A stretch of DNA of 59,051 bases, filler included. It is 2 parts of 2 records of this genome, joined end to end, with 100 filler letters (N's around TTAATTAATTAA, not from the genome) between each part and the next. Parts side by side here need not be neighbours in the genome. Positions count along the whole stretch, not along the records: positions 1 to 31,321 come from SRR20825006_2532; 1 more part is not named here. One strand, written 5' to 3'. Of the stretch, positions 21,384 through 31,421 are shown piece by piece. Every line of letters begins with the position of its first letter. The first letter of the stretch is position 1. The position numbers and the translations under genes were made by a program. Below the pieces are notes generated by a model, which was not told the DNA's origin, made no database searches, and saw nothing but the letters and a program-made list of their open reading frames with translations.

Positions 21384-23207
21384 TTATGATTCGATTTTTA
21401 AAATTGTTTCGCCACAGTTATTCATTTTATCTCCGAAGTATGGATTGGCAATTTCTTCGGTATCACTTAACCAATAGCCGCCTTTCCCGCCGTCTGTCAT
21501 TGGGCAAAACTGCTGATAAACCACTCCATTAATGCCAAAAATTTTAACACTTTCTATAAGCTTTTCTGATAACGAGAGGAATACTGTTCTTTGCTTATCA
21601 ATATTCTTTTCGGCGGCTATCGCAGCTGAGTAGTTATTTAAACTTCCTAATTGCCCCATCCATTGGATGTGTAAATCCCCTTGTACTAAACTCATATCTA
21701 CCGCAGTGAGTTTAGTATTTATTAGCTTCGCCGCCCGCATTGCAGCTTCGGGATTGGTTTGATTGAGTGCATCTTTAAGTTCCAAATATTCGTCAACTAC
21801 TCCGGTTAACTGTTGTTTAAATTCTACAGGAACAGATTCCGCGTCCAACTTCCTAGTATTTCCCTTTTCCTTGGATGTAGATTTAGAAACCACGTCAGCT
21901 TTCATTTCGTCAGTCATGATATGACCTTCATGCCCCGTTCTATTTGCTCCCGTGCCTGGGGTTCTGTTCATCATGCTAAGCTTGTCGGCAAGTTGGGCAG
22001 CACTGTCAATTTTAAAGGTTCCATGTTTCACTACGGTTTCACCGGCTTCTAATCCATCTAATATTTCATAGTAATCGCCGATTCTTTTACCTAGCGTAAC
22101 TTCTCTGGCTTTAAAAGTGGGTTTATCATTTCCCTTCTCTTCTACATAAACGATGGAACGAGTTCCCGTCCACATAACAGCTGACTTTGGAATAAGTAGC
22201 CCCGGAGTAGAGCTTTTATTACCTCGAACTATTCCTTCTGCTAACATTCCTGGTTTCAGATTAAGGTCTTTATTTTGAATGTTCGTTCTAATTTTCACCG
22301 TTCTGGACGAGTTATTAAGAATGGGATCTATAAAATCGATTTTTGAAGTAAAAGTGCGACTAGGTAATGATGGAATCGTAAACGTAATTTCATCTCCTTT
22401 GGAAATACTCCCTAGATCTGACTCATACGCATCAAATTGCACCCAAATAGAGCTAAGTTCGCTTATCTCGTACATCAAATCACCACGTACTAGATGATCA
22501 CCAACCGAAACGAACCTTTTCAAAACATATCCACTCTTATGTGCATGGATATCAATATTAGAATCAGGAGTTCCGTTTGCTAAAATCTCATCAATTTGAG
22601 CTGGTGGAATTTTCCAATTCATCAGTTTCTTTCTTGCCGCTTGATATAACATGGGGTTACTATCTTTAGCCGCGTAGGCTTCAAAAAGTTCCTTTTGAGC
22701 GGTATATAACTCTGGCGAGTACACCCGAGCCACTTTTGCTCCTTTGGTTATATAATCTCCAGTAAAATTAACATATAGCTGCTCCACTCTACCATGAAAA
22801 TGCGCCGGAATCTGTGCAATTTCACGTTCATCAATTACTACTTTTCCTGGTAAGCGCACTTCGATTGGCGCACTGCTAATACGAACTTCTGTGGTTTCAA
22901 TTTCGGCTAGTTTTAAAGCCGCAAACGACATTGTAATTGCATCTGGATCTTCATTCTCAGAATTATTGTCGTTTACAGGAATGAGATTCATTCCACAAAT
23001 CGGGCAATTTCCTGGCTCATTTTGGCGAACCGATGGATGCATACTACAACTGTATACGAGATTTCCTTCCTCGTCGGTATGCGTTTCCGTTAAGTGCTCA
23101 TCTATGCTTTGCGTGGCTGGTGCTGAGTTTCCAAAGAAAATCGCTCCCAACGTAATGCCAACGAGCCCAATAACTAAATAAATGGAGTATGTTTTTAACT
23201 TTTTCAT
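21384..23207 (-). CDS. cusB: CusB-type RND periplasmic adaptor with N-terminal heavy-metal-binding domain and C-terminal DUF3347
   Basis: YSCSMHP...PGNCPICGMNL; YSPEL; LKPGM; C-terminal CPM...WLS...NPYFG..M..CG. Confidence 0.88.
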   Translation of the reverse strand: MKKLKTYSIYLVIGLVGITLGAIFFGNSAPATQSIDEHLTETHTDEEGNLVYSCSMHPSVRQNEPGNCPICGMNLIPVNDNNSENEDPDAITMSFAALKLAEIETTEVRISSAPIEVRLPGKVVIDEREIAQIPAHFHGRVEQLYVNFTGDYITKGAKVARVYSPELYTAQKELFEAYAAKDSNPMLYQAARKKLMNWKIPPAQIDEILANGTPDSNIDIHAHKSGYVLKRFVSVGDHLVRGDLMYEISELSSIWVQFDAYESDLGSISKGDEITFTIPSLPSRTFTSKIDFIDPILNNSSRTVKIRTNIQNKDLNLKPGMLAEGIVRGNKSSTPGLLIPKSAVMWTGTRSIVYVEEKGNDKPTFKAREVTLGKRIGDYYEILDGLEAGETVVKHGTFKIDSAAQLADKLSMMNRTPGTGANRTGHEGHIMTDEMKADVVSKSTSKEKGNTRKLDAESVPVEFKQQLTGVVDEYLELKDALNQTNPEAAMRAAKLINTKLTAVDMSLVQGDLHIQWMGQLGSLNNYSAAIAAEKNIDKQRTVFLSLSEKLIESVKIFGINGVVYQQFCPMTDGGKGGYWLSDTEEIANPYFGDKMNNCGETILKIES

Positions 23208-23218
23208 AGGTAGATGGT

Positions 23219-24619
23219 TTAGTAATTAATTTCGTTTGGTGAGATGCTGTTTACACCATTTAGATACTGGATATAGCTCATTGCTCTAAATTCATCCGCT
23301 TTGGCTTGATCTCGCTTCAGCTGGTAGTCGAGTAATTTGCGCTGCAATCGTAATATTTCTTCGAACCCAGCATTACTTGTTGAATAGGCATCTGTCAAAA
23401 TTCGGATAGCCTGCTCAATGCGTTGAATCTGTTTCTCATTGTATAATTCAAATCTGCGTTGGGCATCTTTCACATCTCGTTGAGCAGTTAAAAAACTGGT
23501 TTCAAGTTGGTTTTCTAACGCTGTTATATCTTGTTGAACAGAACTCAAATTCAGCTTTGCTTGGCGCACATTGGCGTTGTATTTATTTCTGAAGAGAGGG
23601 ATTCTAAAACTCGCCCGTGCTATTAATGCGTCTTTTCCATTATTCGCTAACCCAACAACATCGGTTCGTTTCCCTGTGGCGATGTAATCAAAGCCGATTC
23701 CAAATCCTGGCTTACCTTCTTTTGCCGCCAGATCAACAGCATTGCTAGAAGCTTCTTTTGTATATCGAAGTTTAGATAAGCTTGGATTCTGAGCTAGCCG
23801 ACTAACTTCAAGGTCTACCGAATTTTCTGAATTATTTAATTCTGATGGTGTTGCTACTTTGTCGTTCGGCTCCATATTTCTCAACTCATTAAACTCTTGA
23901 ATTAAAAGGCTTTTGTTATCCTGAAGGAGAGCAAGTGTTGTTTTCAAATCTTCTTGCTCAATTTGTGCTCTCAGAACATCTACTTGGGAAGTAAGTCCAT
24001 TCTCGTATTGCTGAAGACTCAGTTCAAGCAATGTGTTTATGATGGAAAGATTCCCTTTTACGCTTTCAATATTTCGATCTATCACATACAACTCTCCCCA
24101 AAGTTCTTCCATTTGGTAAAAAAGTCGATTTCTACGTTCCTGAAATTGTTCGAATCTTGCTTTAGCTTCTGCTGTTGAAATAGCGCGATTGTCTGCTAAA
24201 GACCCAAACCAAGGAAACATCTGAGTAACCGAAATCCGAGCTTTTTGTGGCCCCAGACGTGTTTCGATAGGGCTGATGAAATACGCAAAAGCCACTTCTG
24301 GATCTGGTAGTGTTCCTGTTAGCGAACGCTCTTCCAATGCCGAACGATAGTTTAGAAATAAAGCATATAACTCTGGATTATTCTGAGCTGCTTCTTGCTG
24401 ATAGTTTTGAAGGCTTTGGCCGTTTAAATTTGAGATTGAAACCAAGCTCATTAACATAACCAAGCATATAGCTAAAAACCTATTCCTCGGAAGGAAATTT
24501 GCTTTTTTAGCCAACTGATAAGTCTCCCCTTGAGGGGAGATGATTGAATCGGTAGTTCCCGATTTGATCTGAGGGGTGTCGTCCATTCTGTTTTCCATAT
24601 GTTGAAATATTCGTCTCAT
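23219..24619 (-). CDS. TolC/CusC-family outer-membrane efflux protein
   Basis: LPDP, ETRLGPQ, QMFPWFG, IPLF; likely start at 24619 by ATGA overlap with the cusA stop (exact start uncertain). Confidence 0.85.
   Translation of the reverse strand: MRRIFQHMENRMDDTPQIKSGTTDSIISPQGETYQLAKKANFLPRNRFLAICLVMLMSLVSISNLNGQSLQNYQQEAAQNNPELYALFLNYRSALEERSLTGTLPDPEVAFAYFISPIETRLGPQKARISVTQMFPWFGSLADNRAISTAEAKARFEQFQERRNRLFYQMEELWGELYVIDRNIESVKGNLSIINTLLELSLQQYENGLTSQVDVLRAQIEQEDLKTTLALLQDNKSLLIQEFNELRNMEPNDKVATPSELNNSENSVDLEVSRLAQNPSLSKLRYTKEASSNAVDLAAKEGKPGFGIGFDYIATGKRTDVVGLANNGKDALIARASFRIPLFRNKYNANVRQAKLNLSSVQQDITALENQLETSFLTAQRDVKDAQRRFELYNEKQIQRIEQAIRILTDAYSTSNAGFEEILRLQRKLLDYQLKRDQAKADEFRAMSYIQYLNGVNSISPNEINY
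24521..24580. repeat. GC-rich double-hairpin REP-like element in the 5' end of the TolC gene
   Basis: TCTCCCCT-TG-AGGGGAGA perfect inverted repeat, AATCGG/CCGATT stem and GAGGGGTGT end in otherwise AT-rich DNA; only one copy in this window. Confidence 0.5.
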
Positions 24620-27600
24620 TTCAAGCTCCTTTTCAATTGAAATTCTTTCCAAATAGCGTATAAAACGGGCACTACAAACAAGGTTACAATCTGCAACATC
24701 ATCCCCCCAATACTTGGAATAGCCATCGGAACCATAATATCAGAGCCTCGCCCTGTAGAGGTTAAAATTGGAATTAGTGCAAGAATGGTTGTGGCGGTTG
24801 TCATCAGAGTTGGGCGAATACGGCGTGTACTCGCTTCAATAACTGTGGCTCTGATTTCTTCTTTTGTTGTGGGTTTTACTTTCTCAAAAAGCTGATCGAG
24901 ATACGTAGCCATTACCACGCCACCATCCGAAGCAATTCCAAAGAGTGCAATAAAGCCGACCCAAACAGCCACGCTTAAATTCACGGTTCCCATTTGGAAT
25001 AAATCTCTCAAGTTCTGCCCGAAAAGATCGATGTTTAAGAACCACGGTTGTCCGTATAACCAGAGCAATAGAAAGCCGCCTGCCCAAGCCACAAAAATGC
25101 TCGTGAATATCATTCCTGTAGTGGCCGCCGATTTGAACTGGAAATACATAATCAAGAAGATGGCGAAAAGGGCGATGGGCAAAATGATGCCTAATCGTTT
25201 CTCGGCGCGAACTTGATTCTCGTAGTTTCCAGCAAATTTAAAACTAACCCCAGCTGGAACTGTCAACTGACCATTTTCGATGTATTCTGAAATAAGATTT
25301 TGAGCATTTTCTACAACTTCTACTTCCGCAAATCCATCTAGCTTGTCAAAAATAACGAAGCCGATAAGAAAGGTATCTTCACTTTTAATTGCTTGTGGCC
25401 CTTGTCTATACTCGATGCTTGCCAATTGCTCTAGCGGAATTTGCGCTCCCTGTTTTGTGGGAATGAGCATTCGCGCTATTGCTTCGGGACTATCTCGTAA
25501 TTCTCTTGCATAGCGAACTCGAATCGGATAACGCTCTCTTCCTTCCACAGAAGTTGATACTCGTTTTCCTCCAATTCCAACGGTTACAAATTGTTGGGCG
25601 TCCAGTACAGAAAGTCCGTATCTGGCTAATTTTTCTCTATCCCAGTTAATTTCTAGATAGGGCTTTCCCACTATTCGATCCGCGAAAATAGAAGGAGTAT
25701 TAACTCCGCGAACATCTTTCAAAACTTCCTCAAGTTGGAGCCCAAATTTTTCAATCGTTTCTAAGCTGGAGCCTTTAACTTTAATTCCCATTGGCGCCCG
25801 CATTCCCGATTGAAGCATCACTAATCGTGTTTGAATAGGCTGCAGTTTTGGAGCAGATGTTGTGCCTAAAAGCTTAGATGCGGCCACAATTTCATTCCAG
25901 ATATCATCGGGAGAATGGATGTGATCTCGCCATTGGCGGAAATACTCTCCTTTTGCATCCGGTATGAGATTTTCGTTTTCATCACGAACAAAATTTTCGT
26001 CGTCATCAACCTTAAAGCGAACTCTTCGTCCGTTTTCATCGGTTTTGTATTCTGATTTGTAGATAACCACATTCTCGAACATGGAAATTGGAGCGGGGTC
26101 GAGTGCGGATTCCGTTCGTCCCATTTTACCAACTACGGTTTCTACTTCGGGGATGGAAGCCACAGACATGTCAATTTTCTGCATCACGTCTTTAGCTTCT
26201 TCTATTCCTGCATGAGGCATCGTTGTTGGCATCAGCAAAAATGCGCCTTCATCTAAAGCAGGCATAAACTCTTTCCCTAAACCTGGAAAAGTATGTGATG
26301 TGGCGCTCCAAACACTGGTTGTTTTAATATCCCAACCAACACTTTCAAAGCTTCTTTCCACAAAACCGAACACTCTCGAAAAACCTAGCCAAATAACTAT
26401 TCCGAATAAAACCAGAAACGATGGAATAGATAGAAACGCAATTTTATGATCTAGACACCAAGATATGAGATTATGGTAATAGCGAATAACCAACCAAAAC
26501 ATAGCTAAGATGCTCCCAATCAGAATTATTACGAAAAACAGATTCCAGATTAGCGCAACACTTGGTCCAAGTGGCAACCAGTATTGCGTAAGTAACCAAG
26601 TAACTATTATTACGCTGAGTAGGTTGTTATAAAAGGACGTTTTTTGAATCTGCTTATGTTGGAAGAAAACGGGTGCACCATTAATTATTCCAAAACCGAG
26701 TAATGCTAGCCCGGCCCAAACAGGTCCAACAAATAAAACAACGATTCCCGCCAGAACTAGTAAAGCATTCCAGATTAACTTCACAATTCGGTTGCTGATT
26801 TTTATTGAAAATACCCAATGTGCAAAAGGTGGAATTAGCGTTATTGAAATGATAATGGAAGCTATGAGCGCGAATGTTTTAGTGTAAGCAAGCGGCTTAA
26901 AAAGTTTACCTTCGGCAGCAATCATGGTAAATACTGGCAAGAAACTTACAATAGTTGTAGAAACGGCTGTAATTACTGCTGATGCAACTTCCGTTGTGGC
27001 GTTGTAAATAACTTCTAGTAGTGAATCGCCTTCAGCTTTTTCTTCCATATGCCTGAGCATATTTTCCGAAAGGATTACCCCCATATCCACAATAGTTCCT
27101 ATAGCGATGGCTATCCCCGAAAGCGCTACAATATTGGCGTCAACTCCAGCATATTTCATCGCGATGAATGTCATGAGTACCGCTACTGGTAACATTCCTG
27201 CAATCAGAAACGACGTTCTTAGATTCATTACCATCACTACAATCACAATAATGGTAATCAGGATTTCGAGCGTCAGTGCTTCTTCTAGTGTACCTAGTGT
27301 TTCGGCAATCAATTCTGAGCGATCATAAAACGGTACAATCGTAACTTTTGAAGTGCTTCCGTTTGCCAATTTTTTAGAAGGCAATCCTGTTGAAAGCTCA
27401 GCGATTTTCTCTTTAATGTTGTTTATCACTTCTTGTGGATTTGCGCCTTGCCTTGCCACCACCACTGCGCCTACCGCATCTGCGCCGGCTTTATCTAGAG
27501 CTCCGCGCCGCATTGCAGGTCCCATGCTTACAAAAGCCACATCTTTAATTCTGATGGGCACATTATTCACCACTTTTACTACGGCTTCTTCTAAATCTTC

Positions 27601-28374
27601 GGTGCTTTTTATATATCCCAATCCACGAACTAAATATTCGGCGTTGTTTAGTTCTATGGTTCTTGCCCCAACTTCGGCATTGCTTTCTCTAACAGCTTGG
27701 TATACTTCGTTTAGGCTAATTCCATACACTTGAAGCGTTGTGGGATTCACATCAACTTGGTATTCTTTTACGTAGCCACCAATAGGTGCAACTTCAGCAA
27801 CTCCGCTGGCTCCAGAAAGAGCGTAGCCCACATAAAAATCTTGGATGCTTCGTAATTCTTGAAGATCCCATCCGCCTGCAGGTTTTCCTTCTTCATTTCG
27901 CCCTTCTAAGGTGTACCAAAAAACTTGCCCAAGTGCGGTGGCATCAGGACCTAGTGCTGGTTGAACATCACTAGGAAGCGTTCCAGCGGGCAACGAATTT
28001 AGCTTTTCGAGAATGCGTGAGCGACTCCAATAAAATTCTACGCCTTCTTCAAAAATCACAAAGATGCTCGAAACGCCTAACATCGAAGTGCTACGAATGG
28101 TTTTAACGCCTGGAACTGTGAGAAGTTGAGTTGTTAATGGATAGGTAATTTGATCTTCCACATCTTGTGGAGATTGCCCAGTCCATTCGGTGTATACAAT
28201 TTGCTGATTCTCTCCCAAATCGGGAATTGCATCAACAGGTACAGGGTCGTTTGGGATGAAACTTAGATTCCAAGCAAACGGTGAGGTCGCTATTCCCCAA
28301 AAAACGAGTGCTAAAAGTAGTAATAGAGCAACTAGCTTGTTCTCTAAAAAGAAGCGAATAATTTTATTAAGCAT
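24616..28374 (-). CDS. cusA: CusA-type Cu(I)/Ag(I) heavy-metal efflux RND permease
   Basis: DAIPDLGENQ, GPDATALG, AIAIGTIVD; Met triad equivalents LLMPT, PISMFE, RLVMLQ; RIRPTLMT. Confidence 0.92.
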   Translation of the reverse strand: MLNKIIRFFLENKLVALLLLLALVFWGIATSPFAWNLSFIPNDPVPVDAIPDLGENQQIVYTEWTGQSPQDVEDQITYPLTTQLLTVPGVKTIRSTSMLGVSSIFVIFEEGVEFYWSRSRILEKLNSLPAGTLPSDVQPALGPDATALGQVFWYTLEGRNEEGKPAGGWDLQELRSIQDFYVGYALSGASGVAEVAPIGGYVKEYQVDVNPTTLQVYGISLNEVYQAVRESNAEVGARTIELNNAEYLVRGLGYIKSTEDLEEAVVKVVNNVPIRIKDVAFVSMGPAMRRGALDKAGADAVGAVVVARQGANPQEVINNIKEKIAELSTGLPSKKLANGSTSKVTIVPFYDRSELIAETLGTLEEALTLEILITIIVIVVMVMNLRTSFLIAGMLPVAVLMTFIAMKYAGVDANIVALSGIAIAIGTIVDMGVILSENMLRHMEEKAEGDSLLEVIYNATTEVASAVITAVSTTIVSFLPVFTMIAAEGKLFKPLAYTKTFALIASIIISITLIPPFAHWVFSIKISNRIVKLIWNALLVLAGIVVLFVGPVWAGLALLGFGIINGAPVFFQHKQIQKTSFYNNLLSVIIVTWLLTQYWLPLGPSVALIWNLFFVIILIGSILAMFWLVIRYYHNLISWCLDHKIAFLSIPSFLVLFGIVIWLGFSRVFGFVERSFESVGWDIKTTSVWSATSHTFPGLGKEFMPALDEGAFLLMPTTMPHAGIEEAKDVMQKIDMSVASIPEVETVVGKMGRTESALDPAPISMFENVVIYKSEYKTDENGRRVRFKVDDDENFVRDENENLIPDAKGEYFRQWRDHIHSPDDIWNEIVAASKLLGTTSAPKLQPIQTRLVMLQSGMRAPMGIKVKGSSLETIEKFGLQLEEVLKDVRGVNTPSIFADRIVGKPYLEINWDREKLARYGLSVLDAQQFVTVGIGGKRVSTSVEGRERYPIRVRYARELRDSPEAIARMLIPTKQGAQIPLEQLASIEYRQGPQAIKSEDTFLIGFVIFDKLDGFAEVEVVENAQNLISEYIENGQLTVPAGVSFKFAGNYENQVRAEKRLGIILPIALFAIFLIMYFQFKSAATTGMIFTSIFVAWAGGFLLLWLYGQPWFLNIDLFGQNLRDLFQMGTVNLSVAVWVGFIALFGIASDGGVVMATYLDQLFEKVKPTTKEEIRATVIEASTRRIRPTLMTTATTILALIPILTSTGRGSDIMVPMAIPSIGGMMLQIVTLFVVPVLYAIWKEFQLKRSLK

Positions 28375-28385
28375 GATTTACTGAG

Positions 28386-28506
28386 TTAGAAATACTTCGA
28401 TGAACTGCTCGCACAGTTTGATTTATTCTAAAGTTTGGACCGCTAACCCAACTGCGGATTTCTCCCGCTAGGATTGGTTCAAACCGATAAATTCGAAGTG
28501 TTCTAA
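28386..28506 (-). ncRNA. Candidate structured cis-regulatory RNA between the leader ORF and cusA
   Basis: Closing stem UUAGAA.ACUUCGA/UCGAAGU..UUCUAA; long arm capped GGGA-GAAA-UCC; short arm AACUGU-GCGA-GCAGUU; G-U wobbles and GNRA loops only on the mRNA strand; folded by eye. Confidence 0.55.
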
Positions 28507-28949
28507 ATCAAGAAAGAAGAGTTCGCCAGAAAGAGTAGTGGAGGCGAATAGGAATTGGAGAGGTGGATTGGAATTGGCTTTTCTGAAACCGAAGATACGT
28601 TTTCGTCTACGCTTAAAATCGCAAACAACACCTGAACTGGACTAATTTTTACCGTTGAAGGAACTGGTATCGTGGCTGGTGCTGTTGCCCTAATTATACA
28701 ACAATCGGTAAGAAACACACAATCGTCAGAATTTGAAGGCATGCCTTCATGGCTAGTAGTCATCGGACAATCATCATCCATCATAGAATCATGATTCATA
28801 GCACTAGATGGCATTGTACCCATCTCCATCATTTGCTCGCATAATTCCATGGGATTTGCAGAAAGCCCCATAGAAGGCAAGATGCCAATAAGAAAACTAA
28901 AACCGAGTACGGCCGATAGTATCTGAGATATGTTTCGTAATTTTTTCAC
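28503..28949 (-). CDS. Exported Met/Cys/His-rich leader protein (HYC_CC_PP / DUF2946 / CutF-like)
   Basis: Hydrophobic N-terminus; ~10 Met, 5 Cys (incl. CC) and 2 His in the central region; C-terminal YSPP...SSFLI; first gene of the copper operon. Confidence 0.65.
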   Translation of the reverse strand: MKKLRNISQILSAVLGFSFLIGILPSMGLSANPMELCEQMMEMGTMPSSAMNHDSMMDDDCPMTTSHEGMPSNSDDCVFLTDCCIIRATAPATIPVPSTVKISPVQVLFAILSVDENVSSVSEKPIPIHLSNSYSPPLLFLANSSFLI

Positions 28950-29251
28950 ACCAAAAAGTAATCAATTAGCTGACCAACATAAATACAATATTATTTACCA
29001 CCTCTTTTTGACATACCTTACATAATCTTATTTCATTCGATAATCGCCATTTAATCTACTGGGAAGTGCTTTTCATGAAATTGGACTGAAATTCCAGCAC
29101 AAAGAAATCACCTTTTTATATAACAATTAGTCAGAATTGTATAAGTAGAAACCACGACATTTAGGGATATTCTACCTGCCTTTTAAAAGCTCCGATGTGT
29201 TATAAGAGCTTAGAGTTCAAACAAACAAACCAATCAAAAACTGATTTTTTA

Positions 29252-29713
29252 ATGAAATATTTTGAACTAAAAATTCCACCAGTAGTGGTATCTCTTATTT
29301 TTTTAGGATTGATTTGGGTTGTTAACCAATGGCCTTTTATTGAAGGGTTACGATTCAAGACAGAAACTGGAATCGTTATTATCATGCTCGTTATTGGAGC
29401 TTTGGTTGGAATTCTGGGAGTAGTTGAATTCAGACGGAAATCGACCACTGTAAATCCTCACAAACCTAATAACACTTCCGCTCTTGTGACATCAGGTATT
29501 TATACTTTCTCGCGAAATCCCATGTATTTTGCCCTACTCATTGTTTTAGGTGCGGCCGCTTTTAAATGGGGAAGTTTATTCGGTTTTCTCATTCTTCCAT
29601 TATTCGTTTACTACATGAATCAATTTCAGATTAAACCCGAAGAAGCTGTATTAGAACAAATATTCGGCGAAGAATTTTTAGAATATAAAGAAGAAGTCCG
29701 ACGGTGGGCTTGA
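29252..29713 (+). CDS. Isoprenylcysteine carboxyl methyltransferase (ICMT/PEMT) family membrane protein
   Basis: TTVNP, LVTSGIY..SRNPMY, QIKPEE..L...FGEE...Y...VRRW; start MKYFELKIPP preferred over 29195. Confidence 0.85.
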   Translation: MKYFELKIPPVVVSLIFLGLIWVVNQWPFIEGLRFKTETGIVIIMLVIGALVGILGVVEFRRKSTTVNPHKPNNTSALVTSGIYTFSRNPMYFALLIVLGAAAFKWGSLFGFLILPLFVYYMNQFQIKPEEAVLEQIFGEEFLEYKEEVRRWA

Positions 29714-29782: not shown

Positions 29783-30886
29783 CTAATTCACTATACTATT
29801 CGTTTCAACGCTATAAATGATATTTCTATAACCATCTAGAATAAATACCCAATCTTCATTAGCGGAAAACTTATGGAAATTAATTTTATCTCCTTCTAAA
29901 TTTTTAAAACTAGCTTTCCGCGTCTCCTCTTTACCGCTTAGATCAATTACATAAAGCTCAGTTTCTAAACTTACAAGCAATTTTCCATGTACTAAGAACA
30001 TATCCCTTACGATATTCTTAACCCCACCACTTTCATTTTCAGGTTTCTTTTCAAGAGGAACGTTAAAGTCTTTAATTTTTTGATTAGGAAGTAAATTAAT
30101 GACATTCTTTGTACGATTTAACTCTAAAAAAACTAGTGGTAAGCCTTTATAAGCAAAAACCAAGTCTTCCCTTTTATTTCCAATAGCATATACAACATCG
30201 TTATATGTGATGGGCTGATATCCCATTGGAATTATCCTCTTTACCAACCCTTTCTTAAACTCACCGAATGAATTCCATTCTATTAATGTATATTCTTCAT
30301 GGTTTTGGGTAGGCCAGATATAACTATTATCAGTTAATACATCCATATAAACAGACACAGTAGATATGGGCAAGTTGGCAGAACAAACTCTGTCTATTTC
30401 TTTACTTTTGCTATTTAGAACTAACATGCATGCTTGTCCTGAGTCTAAAATATATGCTAAAGAATCCTTCTCCACAGAAAAAAACATCGAACTCGGCCGA
30501 ATAACTTCCTGTGGACCTTTTCCGTTTTCTACTACAACTCTCTGATTCCCTACTTTTTCATTTATTCCTATTTCTATAATTCTACCCATTAGTGGGTCAG
30601 CTACCCACAACGAATTCTTATCAAACTGCTTCATATATCCTAAACGGACAATCAATCCATTTGAATCTGTTTTACTATTGTACAATTCATTAATGGTTAG
30701 CGTCTCTTCCGATATTTCTGCCCAATCATCAATACCATAGTATGTGTATGAGCCGAAGTCAGGAATCTTGTCATTGTATTCCTCATTTTTTGAAGTACAA
30801 CTGAGGCTTATAACCATGATAATAGCTGAAAGAATTAGAGCTTCTTTTTTTACTCTTCGATATGCAACATATAAGTTCATCAACAA
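29783..30886 (-). CDS. Probable 6-bladed beta-propeller (TolB-like) lipoprotein
   Basis: Lipobox ISLS-C; LWVAD, GKGPQEVIRP, YILD blade motifs; start uncertain. Confidence 0.65.
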   Translation of the reverse strand: MLMNLYVAYRRVKKEALILSAIIMVISLSCTSKNEEYNDKIPDFGSYTYYGIDDWAEISEETLTINELYNSKTDSNGLIVRLGYMKQFDKNSLWVADPLMGRIIEIGINEKVGNQRVVVENGKGPQEVIRPSSMFFSVEKDSLAYILDSGQACMLVLNSKSKEIDRVCSANLPISTVSVYMDVLTDNSYIWPTQNHEEYTLIEWNSFGEFKKGLVKRIIPMGYQPITYNDVVYAIGNKREDLVFAYKGLPLVFLELNRTKNVINLLPNQKIKDFNVPLEKKPENESGGVKNIVRDMFLVHGKLLVSLETELYVIDLSGKEETRKASFKNLEGDKINFHKFSANEDWVFILDGYRNIIYSVETNSIVN

Positions 30887-31321: not shown

Positions 31322-31421
31322 NNNNNNNNNNNNNNNNNNNNNNNNNNNNNNNNNNNNNNNNNNNNTTAATTAATTAANNNNNNNNNNNNNNNNNNNNNNN
31401 NNNNNNNNNNNNNNNNNNNNN
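31322..31421. other. Artificial contig linker (44 N + TTAATTAATTAA + 44 N)
   Basis: Exactly 100 nt with a six-frame stop cassette; abrupt GC and taxon change across it. Confidence 0.97.

Follow-up and report, generated by a model that had tools for sequence, protein, structure and literature searches.

A helix between the stop codon of a Cys-rich leader gene and the start of cusA in Balneolales as a candidate long-range translational switch

Copper-sensing leaders and the cus locus

In the SecM-secA, MifM-yidC2, VemP-secDF and TnaC-tnaA systems, the ribosome is held up close to the end of the leader by the nascent peptide that it makes, and a downstream helix is opened as a result. These peptides sense secretion activity or tryptophan and the helices concerned are local; TnaC pauses at the stop codon, with its key residue 12 positions back. 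The first three of these systems are named in the discussion of a study of CutF of Rhodobacter capsulatus, a leader protein that is exported, has the motif CxxxC as well as a C-terminal PPP and acts only in cis (PMC9973294; bioRxiv 10.1101/2025.02.05.636593). According to the main text of that study, 5,334 CutF-like proteins were collected by rule, 40% of them from Bacteroidota after normalising and often encoded before OEP, ACR_tran or HlyD_D23 genes, and removal of the cutF-stem-loop region also made the cutOG mRNA less stable (PMC9973294). Its authors stated that the melting of a stem-loop by a stalled ribosome should be confined to short intergenic regions, and they reported that copL, too, acts in cis only (PMC9973294). 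A second described system is CruR (BP2923)-bfrG of Bordetella pertussis, in which a DUF2946 leader is followed by an intergenic region of 162 bp, control works through Rho and copper relieves the stalling (PMC9426467). Distances of this length were considered by the authors to be incompatible with translational coupling, and DUF2946 proteins were described as having CXXC and RAPP motifs at a fixed spacing of 45 residues (PMC9426467).

The window analysed here (the whole stretch of DNA, 59,051 nucleotides with filler) consists of two unrelated contigs that are joined by an artificial linker at positions 31322-31421 (an N-run, TTAATTAATTAA and a second N-run). The left contig has a GC content of about 0.39, is Balneola-like, carries the cus locus and is 87-96% identical to a contig of genome G302, while the right contig has a GC content of about 0.55 and is 100% identical to genome G001; the assembly probably stems from a mixed bin or a mixed culture. 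Since G001 matches the right-hand contig only, searches among its relatives were uninformative for the cus locus and gave chance matches (best E 0.049, 14-35 nt) or none (0/301 and 0/45).

The leader gene (28503-28949, minus strand) encodes 148 aa from a GTG start to a UAG stop at 28505-28503. It is separated by a spacer of 128 nt from a gene for a cusA-like RND pump (24616-28374, minus strand; AUG at 28374-28372; Pfam ACR_tran E 2.6e-171), 3' of which lie an OEP gene (23219-24652, minus strand; Pfam OEP 7.2e-36) and then a cusB-like gene (21384-23207, minus strand; HlyD_D23 2e-64). The order of the operon is cusA, OEP, cusB, and the CusB-like protein has HMBD and DUF3347 domains. The CusA-like protein is 1252 aa long and the ACR_tran model matches four stretches of it; typical CusA proteins have about 1045 aa. 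A gene for a PEMT/ICMT-type methyltransferase is divergent from the leader (29195-29713, plus strand), and beside it stands an ORF of 367 aa that has no Pfam match (29783-30886, minus strand).

A metatranscriptome contig (X13, 636 nt, 22 differences) ran from the leader through the spacer into cusA, of which it had the first 63 nt; a further two metatranscriptome contigs spanned the leader and the spacer. The RNA libraries are assembled contigs only, in which starts, ends and levels are not readable and gaps in cover are meaningless. Contigs of the X13 type favour one leader-spacer-cusA transcript, and this support is weak because DNA may occur in metatranscriptome libraries. Scans for sigma-70 promoters and for terminators (a G+C-rich hairpin followed by a U-tract) gave no promoter-like or terminator-like site in the spacer (28375-28502), and the Bacteroidota-type promoter word TAnnTTTG was present in 5 of 71 orthologous spacers, which is about the level of chance.

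Comparison of the locus with cutF-cutO showed that, in both cases, a small protein with a Cys motif and a C-terminal Pro motif, exported in the case of CutF and probably so here, is encoded just upstream, and that a helix in the mRNA lies over the start region of a copper-detoxifying gene; CutF acts in cis, and melting by a ribosome would be the corresponding step here. As with CutF and CutO, the Balneolales leader family also precedes multicopper oxidases. The window leader agrees with the rules for CutF-like proteins given in the main text of PMC9973294 in its length (148 aa, with a limit of <150 aa), in the position of its PP (P136-P137) and in its context, which is an ACR_tran (CusA-type) gene 128 nt away, then OEP and then HlyD_D23 with HMBD. 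A CutF-type helix that covers the downstream start and lies within the reach of the leader ribosome was found in silico only.

Several features differ from CutF. The pairing is long-range, includes the stop codon and closes a loop of 90-375 nt, whereas that of CutF is a local hairpin; the target is an RND pump; the Cys motif is CC or CxC and not CxxxC; there is no evident Shine-Dalgarno sequence; the protein does not reach the Pfam threshold for DUF2946; and an invariant tail follows the PP, which stands 12-13 residues from the end. The main text of PMC9973294, supplement aside, has no description of a helix that takes in a stop codon and, with a long loop between its strands, adjoins the following start. 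With CruR the locus shares an upstream ORF, a fixed spacing between a Cys and a Pro motif and a long intergenic region, the nascent chain being the copper sensor in the CruR case, while CruR differs by its Rho-dependent termination and by CXXC and RAPP motifs 45 residues apart (PMC9426467). CopL (Xanthomonas, Stenotrophomonas) and CzcI (Cupriavidus) are also small metal-binding proteins encoded 5' of copper or metal resistance genes, and no RNA structure is described for them in the main text of PMC9973294.

The stop-to-start helix in the window and in orthologous spacers

The minimum free energy (MFE) fold of the sense strand of the spacer reached -37.2 kcal/mol (z -3.46), and none of 200 dinucleotide shuffles folded as well. 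The initial annotation had described a three-way junction made of helices P1, P2 and P3, and all three are present in this fold, which also passed the shuffled control that had been proposed for it. The 5' strand of P1 (UUGA-U-UUAGAA-C-ACUUCGA, 28493-28511, minus strand) comprises the last two codons of the leader, the UAG and the next 10 bases, so that the stop codon (28505-28503) lies inside the helix as had been claimed. Its 3' strand (UCGAAGU-AU-UUCUAA-C-UCAG, 28381-28400, minus strand) ends 6 nt before the cusA AUG and not 12 nt as first described, and the helix as first drawn was also too short at its other end, since it begins 6 nt 5' of the stop with the UUGA of the Leu-Ile codons. The duplex has 17 bp and -16.0 kcal/mol, and it covers positions -6 to about -26 of cusA.

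P2 (28421-28492, minus strand) is a long imperfect hairpin in which AUUUAU/AUAAAU, GUUUG/CAAAC and ACC/GGU are followed by an inner stem and a tip. The hairpin itself is in the MFE fold, while the innermost stem of the annotation, GCGGGA/UCCGC, sets 6 nt against 5 nt, and the consensus uses a loop of 5 nt. P3 (AACUGU-GCGA-GCAGUU, 28403-28418, minus strand) is a short hairpin. In agreement with the annotation, the terminator scan of 28375-28502 found no terminator-like site, and the spacer had no Rfam match at E values up to 10; the four matches that the Rfam scan of the window gave at E up to 10 were all outside the spacer, and none was near its gathering score.

We then searched for orthologous loci. 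With the leader protein as the query, 5 loci were obtained from genome records; metagenomes added 3, of which one is a duplicate. The leader profile found a full-length relative in 25 of the 61 relatives of genome G303, and a wider profile found full-length relatives in 145 of the 283 genomes of its order. From these Balneolales, 113 loci were taken, 97 of which had a CusA N-terminus downstream, and 92 of the 113 had the succession of leader, 90-375 nt spacer and cusA under a strict test for the C-terminal motif of the leader; four of the five CusA loci that failed the strict test passed a looser one. The 16 loci without cusA downstream comprised 13 in which the same leader stands before another gene and 3 without the motif. 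Seven of these 13 were examined, and the leader preceded a multicopper oxidase in five (L096, L100, L103, L114 and L050) and an outer-membrane factor (OEP) gene in two (L054 and L126). Leaders at loci without cusA have the same tail and a UAG stop (TAA in L126) and are followed by spacers of 55-339 nt; the stop-to-start helix was clear in L096, L103, L106, L114, L116 and L120 but not in L123, L127 and L126. Many Balneolales genomes have several copies of the leader, with three matches each in G400 and G404 and two in about 30 genomes, and these multiple copies suggest that there is one leader per copper or metal operon. In L088 the position aligned to the cusA start is ATA instead of ATG, which means that the start is elsewhere, that there is a sequencing error or that the start is broken.

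The conservation of P1 was tested on 72 distinct spacers, for each of which we took the best duplex that the region of the leader stop forms with the last 45 nt of the spacer. The duplex had a median of 15 bp (range 10-24 bp) and of -14.0 kcal/mol, usually began 5 nt before the stop, and paired the stop codon fully in 56 of the 72 spacers and not fully in 16. Its 3' strand ended 0-12 nt before the AUG in 64 spacers and more than 12 nt before it in 8. When whole spacers were folded, the MFE structure paired the stop codon with a partner at most 30 nt from the AUG in 56 of 71. Dinucleotide shuffles reached the energy of the cognate duplex in 473 of 7200 cases, and the median z against shuffles was just -2.2, with 31 of 72 spacers above -2.

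The sequences that follow the UAG in the helix are diverse (GAACACUUCGA, GGGAUAACUA, GGGAUUGGU, GAAAUAAAU, GCGAU, GUCGUUAG and others), and P1 covaries, as the initial annotation had proposed to check. The mean energy over 46 sequence classes was -14.0 for cognate strands and -9.3 for non-cognate strands, a difference reached by 0 of 10000 permutations, although such counts overstate independence because the spacer sequences are related. Pairs fixed in register were canonical in 60.2% of cases, as compared with 26.7-50.9% when the partners were slid, and 0 of 1000 reshuffles of the partners gave a value as high. The two register-fixed positions after the stop were canonical in 89% and 83% of the spacers, with 6 and 4 types of pairs, respectively. 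Covariation with the partner base was also seen at the middle position of the last codon (U-A 16, A-U 13), where it tracks the exchange of Ile and Asn at the end of the protein.

These results bear on whether P1 could be a chance complementarity or part of a dispersed palindromic repeat without function. The two strands of the window spacer fold equally well, as a palindrome would, but the spacer is single-copy (G302 and G303 each have it once in full length), a search of these two genomes for a REP-like or MITE-like repeat gave other matches of just 22-23 nt (E>=0.036), and the covariation extends over about 46 classes with no permutation in 10000 as good as the observed pairing. This explanation is hardly credible.

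The annotation had also held that the wobbles and the GNRA loops work only on the coding strand. In the window, the antisense strand gave -37.3 kcal/mol (z -3.96), i.e. it folds as well as the sense strand, and the strand is therefore undecidable from the window sequence alone. Across the orthologues, the z score of the sense strand was lower than that of the antisense strand in 55 of 71 spacers (sense median -3.65), as in L025 and L033 (-3.45 and -5.77 for the sense strand vs -1.60 and -1.65 for the antisense strand), and 83 of the 1063 P1 pairs were G-U pairs. Because of these wobble pairs and of the lower sense z scores, we assign the RNA to the sense strand.

The effect of the leader end on the start region was predicted by masking it in the fold. 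The mean predicted unpaired probability at positions -20 to +3 of cusA increased from 0.44 to 0.69 when the leader end was masked, and it increased in 69 of the 72 spacers; the effect predicted in the window itself was small (0.47 to 0.58). No Shine-Dalgarno sequence was evident 5' of the cusA AUG in the window, and relatives in this lineage rely on an open, A-rich leader with little or no Shine-Dalgarno pairing.

The length of the spacers (90-375 nt) recalls the attenuation of transcription by CruR, in which a DUF2946 leader with a 162-bp intergenic region uses Rho (PMC9426467), and the position of the leader ribosome could likewise decide on Rho-dependent or pause-dependent termination within the spacer, P1 and the inner hairpins merely giving the RNA its shape. 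The location of the 3' strand, 0-12 nt from the start in 64 of 72 spacers, fits a control of initiation and not a termination site. The spacer has no terminator-like site, and it is heavily paired, with the median sense z score given above. Heavily paired RNA is poor ground for the loading of Rho. We consider attenuation of this type to be unlikely.

The other possibility suggested by P1 alone is that a helix of 10-24 bp is a target of a double-strand RNase, or protects by its fold, and thereby splits off the cusA mRNA or makes it more stable. The loss of cutOG mRNA stability when the cutF-stem-loop region is removed (PMC9973294) agrees with such a role. It does not account for the stop codon in one strand and the abutment of the other strand on the start, nor for the conserved tail and the motif spacings of the leader, and the RNA contigs cross the spacer unbroken, which argues weakly against cleavage; a processing or stability element is quite improbable.

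The interior of the spacer behaved differently from P1. A covariance model of the junction (R1) matched 8 of 64 sources, all from the window clade or its sister clade. Within this near clade (alignment A5), 91.0% of the cells were paired, as compared with 26.5-50.7% when the partners were slid, and three pairs changed on both sides, a number reached by 21 of 500 shuffles; by eye, a shift of register of P2 in L025 and L033 masks more compensatory changes. The P3 stem is kept in the near clade, with a change of U-G to C-G in L025 and L033, while its loop is GCGA, GUGA, GCCU or ACCC. The tip of P2 reads GAGAAAU in the window, and relatives have GAAAAUU or GAUAAUA there. The GNRA tetraloops of the initial annotation are thus not conserved, the P2 tip being different even in relatives with 92-96% identity of the leader, and the three-way junction, which is indeed present in the window fold, is confined to the near clade. 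A second clade-specific inner element was seen in L044, L048, L051 and L059 (spacers of 160-207 nt), in which a G+C-rich hairpin of the CUCGGGC-AUUC-GCCGCGAG type is kept about 35 nt before the 3' strand of P1.

A compact three-way junction with two GNRA-type loops, whose P2 is preserved by compensatory changes between the window clade and L025/L033, could in principle be a riboswitch that binds a metal or another ligand. Neither the sequence, the architecture nor the length of the interior is conserved (90-375 nt, with the junction model limited to its own clade), the GNRA loops change among close relatives and there is no Rfam match. A riboswitch is very unlikely, and the metal-responsive RNA element that the annotation had offered as one of its options is disfavoured, since P2, P3 and the GNRA loops are unconserved outside the near clade. 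The three-way junction and the GNRA loops are a local decoration; the conserved core of the spacer, to judge from the aligned sequences, is one long helix that links the leader stop to the cusA start.

The leader protein

The annotation had spoken of a leader and had not recognised its type. The product is not a short leader peptide but a probably exported protein of 148 aa, rich in Cys, Met and His, of the CutF/CopL type. Its N-terminus is rich in K/R and then hydrophobic (KKLR, about 17 hydrophobic residues and SMGLSA-NP) and resembles a signal peptide by eye; a stretch rich in Met, His and Asp, the Cys pair at residues 83-84 and the C-terminal tail YSPPLLFLANSSFLI follow. The codons of Cys83-Cys84 (28698-28703, minus strand), a candidate metal-binding site, correspond to invariant columns in alignment A4, and the pair is CC in the window leader and CxC in most relatives. 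The codons of the tail, from Y134 to I148 (28506-28550, minus strand), place the PP 13 and 12 residues from the end.

The consensus of the tail is Y-S-P-P-P-[IL]-F-L-x-N-x-S-F-L-[IN]. Among 71 distinct loci, all had N(-6) and F(-3), while L(-8) was present in 70 and P(-12) in 69, whereas the choice between synonymous codons was free at most positions of the tail, e.g. CCT 25, CCA 18, CCG 16 and CCC 10 for P(-12). The invariance of N(-6) and F(-3) with free synonymous codons shows that the peptide itself is under selection. Both motifs were found in 61 of 72 sampled members, while 6 were without the PP and 5 without the Cys motif. In all 61 members with both motifs, the first Pro was 12-13 residues from the C-terminus, and in 55 of them the last Cys and the first Pro were separated by 49-55 residues.

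At E<=0.001, a set of 1.84 billion proteins yielded 156 representative clusters of the family. The named cluster records are of a 'hypothetical protein', mostly from Balneola or Balneolaceae, and have no Pfam domain on record; a search of the protein atlas with the leader returned unnamed clusters only, and a full-text literature search gave no mention of 'HYC_CC_PP'. The window leader had no Pfam or NCBIfam match. Among the 72 members, the best-scoring named families were CopL_fam (13/72, best E 1.2e-5) and CzcI (4/72); these matches are weak but recur across the family.

DUF2946 (PF11162) matched 4 of the 72 members at E<=0.1 (best 4.6e-4). It matched 0 of 16 leaders at E<=0.01 and one of the 16 at E 0.036, and it was above the cut-off in 0 of 5 genomes, with one sub-threshold match (15.2 bits) on the leader ORF of G331. 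The motifs also depart from those given for DUF2946 in PMC9426467, since CC or CxC and SPP(P) at the distance of 49-55 residues stand in the place of CXXC and RAPP at 45, in an otherwise like layout. We also examined 30 canonical DUF2946 loci, taken from the phylum to which G001 belongs. Seventeen of them had spacers of 35 nt or longer, and a stop-to-start duplex beyond that of shuffles was found in 2 of the 17; the stops were TGA in 16, TAA in 10 and TAG in 3 of the 29 loci that gave an entry. This test is crude because the ORFs and the starts were guessed in GC-rich DNA, and it only hints that DUF2946 loci do not in general have the stop-to-start helix. The leader of the cus locus resembles the nascent-chain copper sensors CutF, CruR and CopL, and the sensing of the metal probably sits in the leader protein.

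The leader stop codon and the opening of the helix

UAG ended the leader in 89 of 93 loci; counted over distinct spacers, its share was 68 of 72, as against 6 of the 24 long ORFs on the same contig. The rare UGA and UAA stops had matching partners in P1, and the pairing is therefore kept when the stop codon changes; pairing alone leaves the preference for UAG unexplained. Ribosome footprints place a ribosome that is stalled at the PP, 12-13 codons before the stop, too far away to touch P1. If there is a pause, its place would have to be termination itself or one of roughly the last five codons. By analogy with TnaC, whose key residue has the same place as P(-12) in the Balneolales leader, the fixed length of the tail and the preference for UAG suggest that the ribosome pauses at termination or close to it.

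We put at about 0.6 the probability that the spacer is the mRNA part of a translational switch of the CutF type that works over a long distance, in which a ribosome at the end of the leader would melt P1 and expose the cusA start. In the free mRNA, P1 would pair the last two codons of the leader, the UAG and the next 10-12 bases with a stretch that ends about 6 nt before the AUG, thus looping out the remainder of the spacer (P2 and P3 in the window) and covering the region to which the 30S subunit binds. A ribosome on the last leader codons, or one waiting at the stop, would unwind the whole 5' strand of P1 and leave the cusA start free, and a longer dwell of this ribosome would lead to more translation of cusA. 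The dwell may be set by the conserved tail of 15 residues in the exit tunnel and by metal on the Cys motif at a fixed distance behind it. The fold, its conservation and covariation, the leader family with its fixed motif spacings and the operon context are results of the analysis; the block to initiation by P1, the pausing of the ribosome and the control of this pausing by copper are inferred. The ribosome-opened switch was the interpretation named first in the initial annotation; the comparative evidence (covariation of P1 and the predicted effect of masking in 69 of 72 spacers) favours it and supports it in part, and it is probably right. Its functional core is the stop-to-start helix together with the CutF-like leader. 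What simple unmasking of the start leaves unexplained is the retention of a spacer of at least 90 nt.

The retention of the spacer while its interior varies freely would be more easily understood if P1 served to juxtapose the stop and the AUG, so that a ribosome or its 30S subunit terminating at the leader stop restarts at cusA across the looped-out RNA. The stop lies inside P1, with the AUG 0-12 nt beyond the other strand in 64 of 72 spacers, and the excess of UAG over the long ORFs of the contig also agrees with a role of termination. However, a ribosome must melt P1 in order to reach the stop, and the closeness of the two codons is then lost. Sequence does not distinguish such a hand-over from unmasking, and we know of no long-range termination-reinitiation of this kind in bacteria; it is rather unlikely.

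A related, speculative mechanism starts from a pause at termination and not at the prolines. The invariant tail of 12-13 residues (PP..FL.N.SFL[IN]) would fill the exit tunnel just at the moment at which the A site is occupied by the UAG, and the pause would owe its specificity for release factor 1 to the near-universal use of this stop. Beyond masking the start, P1 would keep the AUG of cusA at the base of the helix, and a ribosome leaving the stop might be handed over to it. Such a passage of the ribosome over the 90-375 nt of looped-out spacer would be the bacterial equivalent of ribosome shunting, which we mention as an unlikely possibility.

Under the switch that is opened by unmasking, the Balneolales loci would bear on a group of nascent-chain copper sensors, the CutF/CruR type, that was described only in 2022-2025. 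They suggest a way round the limit to short spacers, in that one strand of the helix is placed on the stop and the other beside the start and the interior is looped out. If this is true, the reach of control of the CutF type extends to spacers of hundreds of bases, and the loci define an unannotated family of leaders (156 representative clusters without a Pfam domain, in 145 of 283 genomes of the order). They would then also be a clean system for testing the pausing of leader ribosomes, with the natural covariation of P1, the fixed tail of the peptide and the near-fixed UAG.
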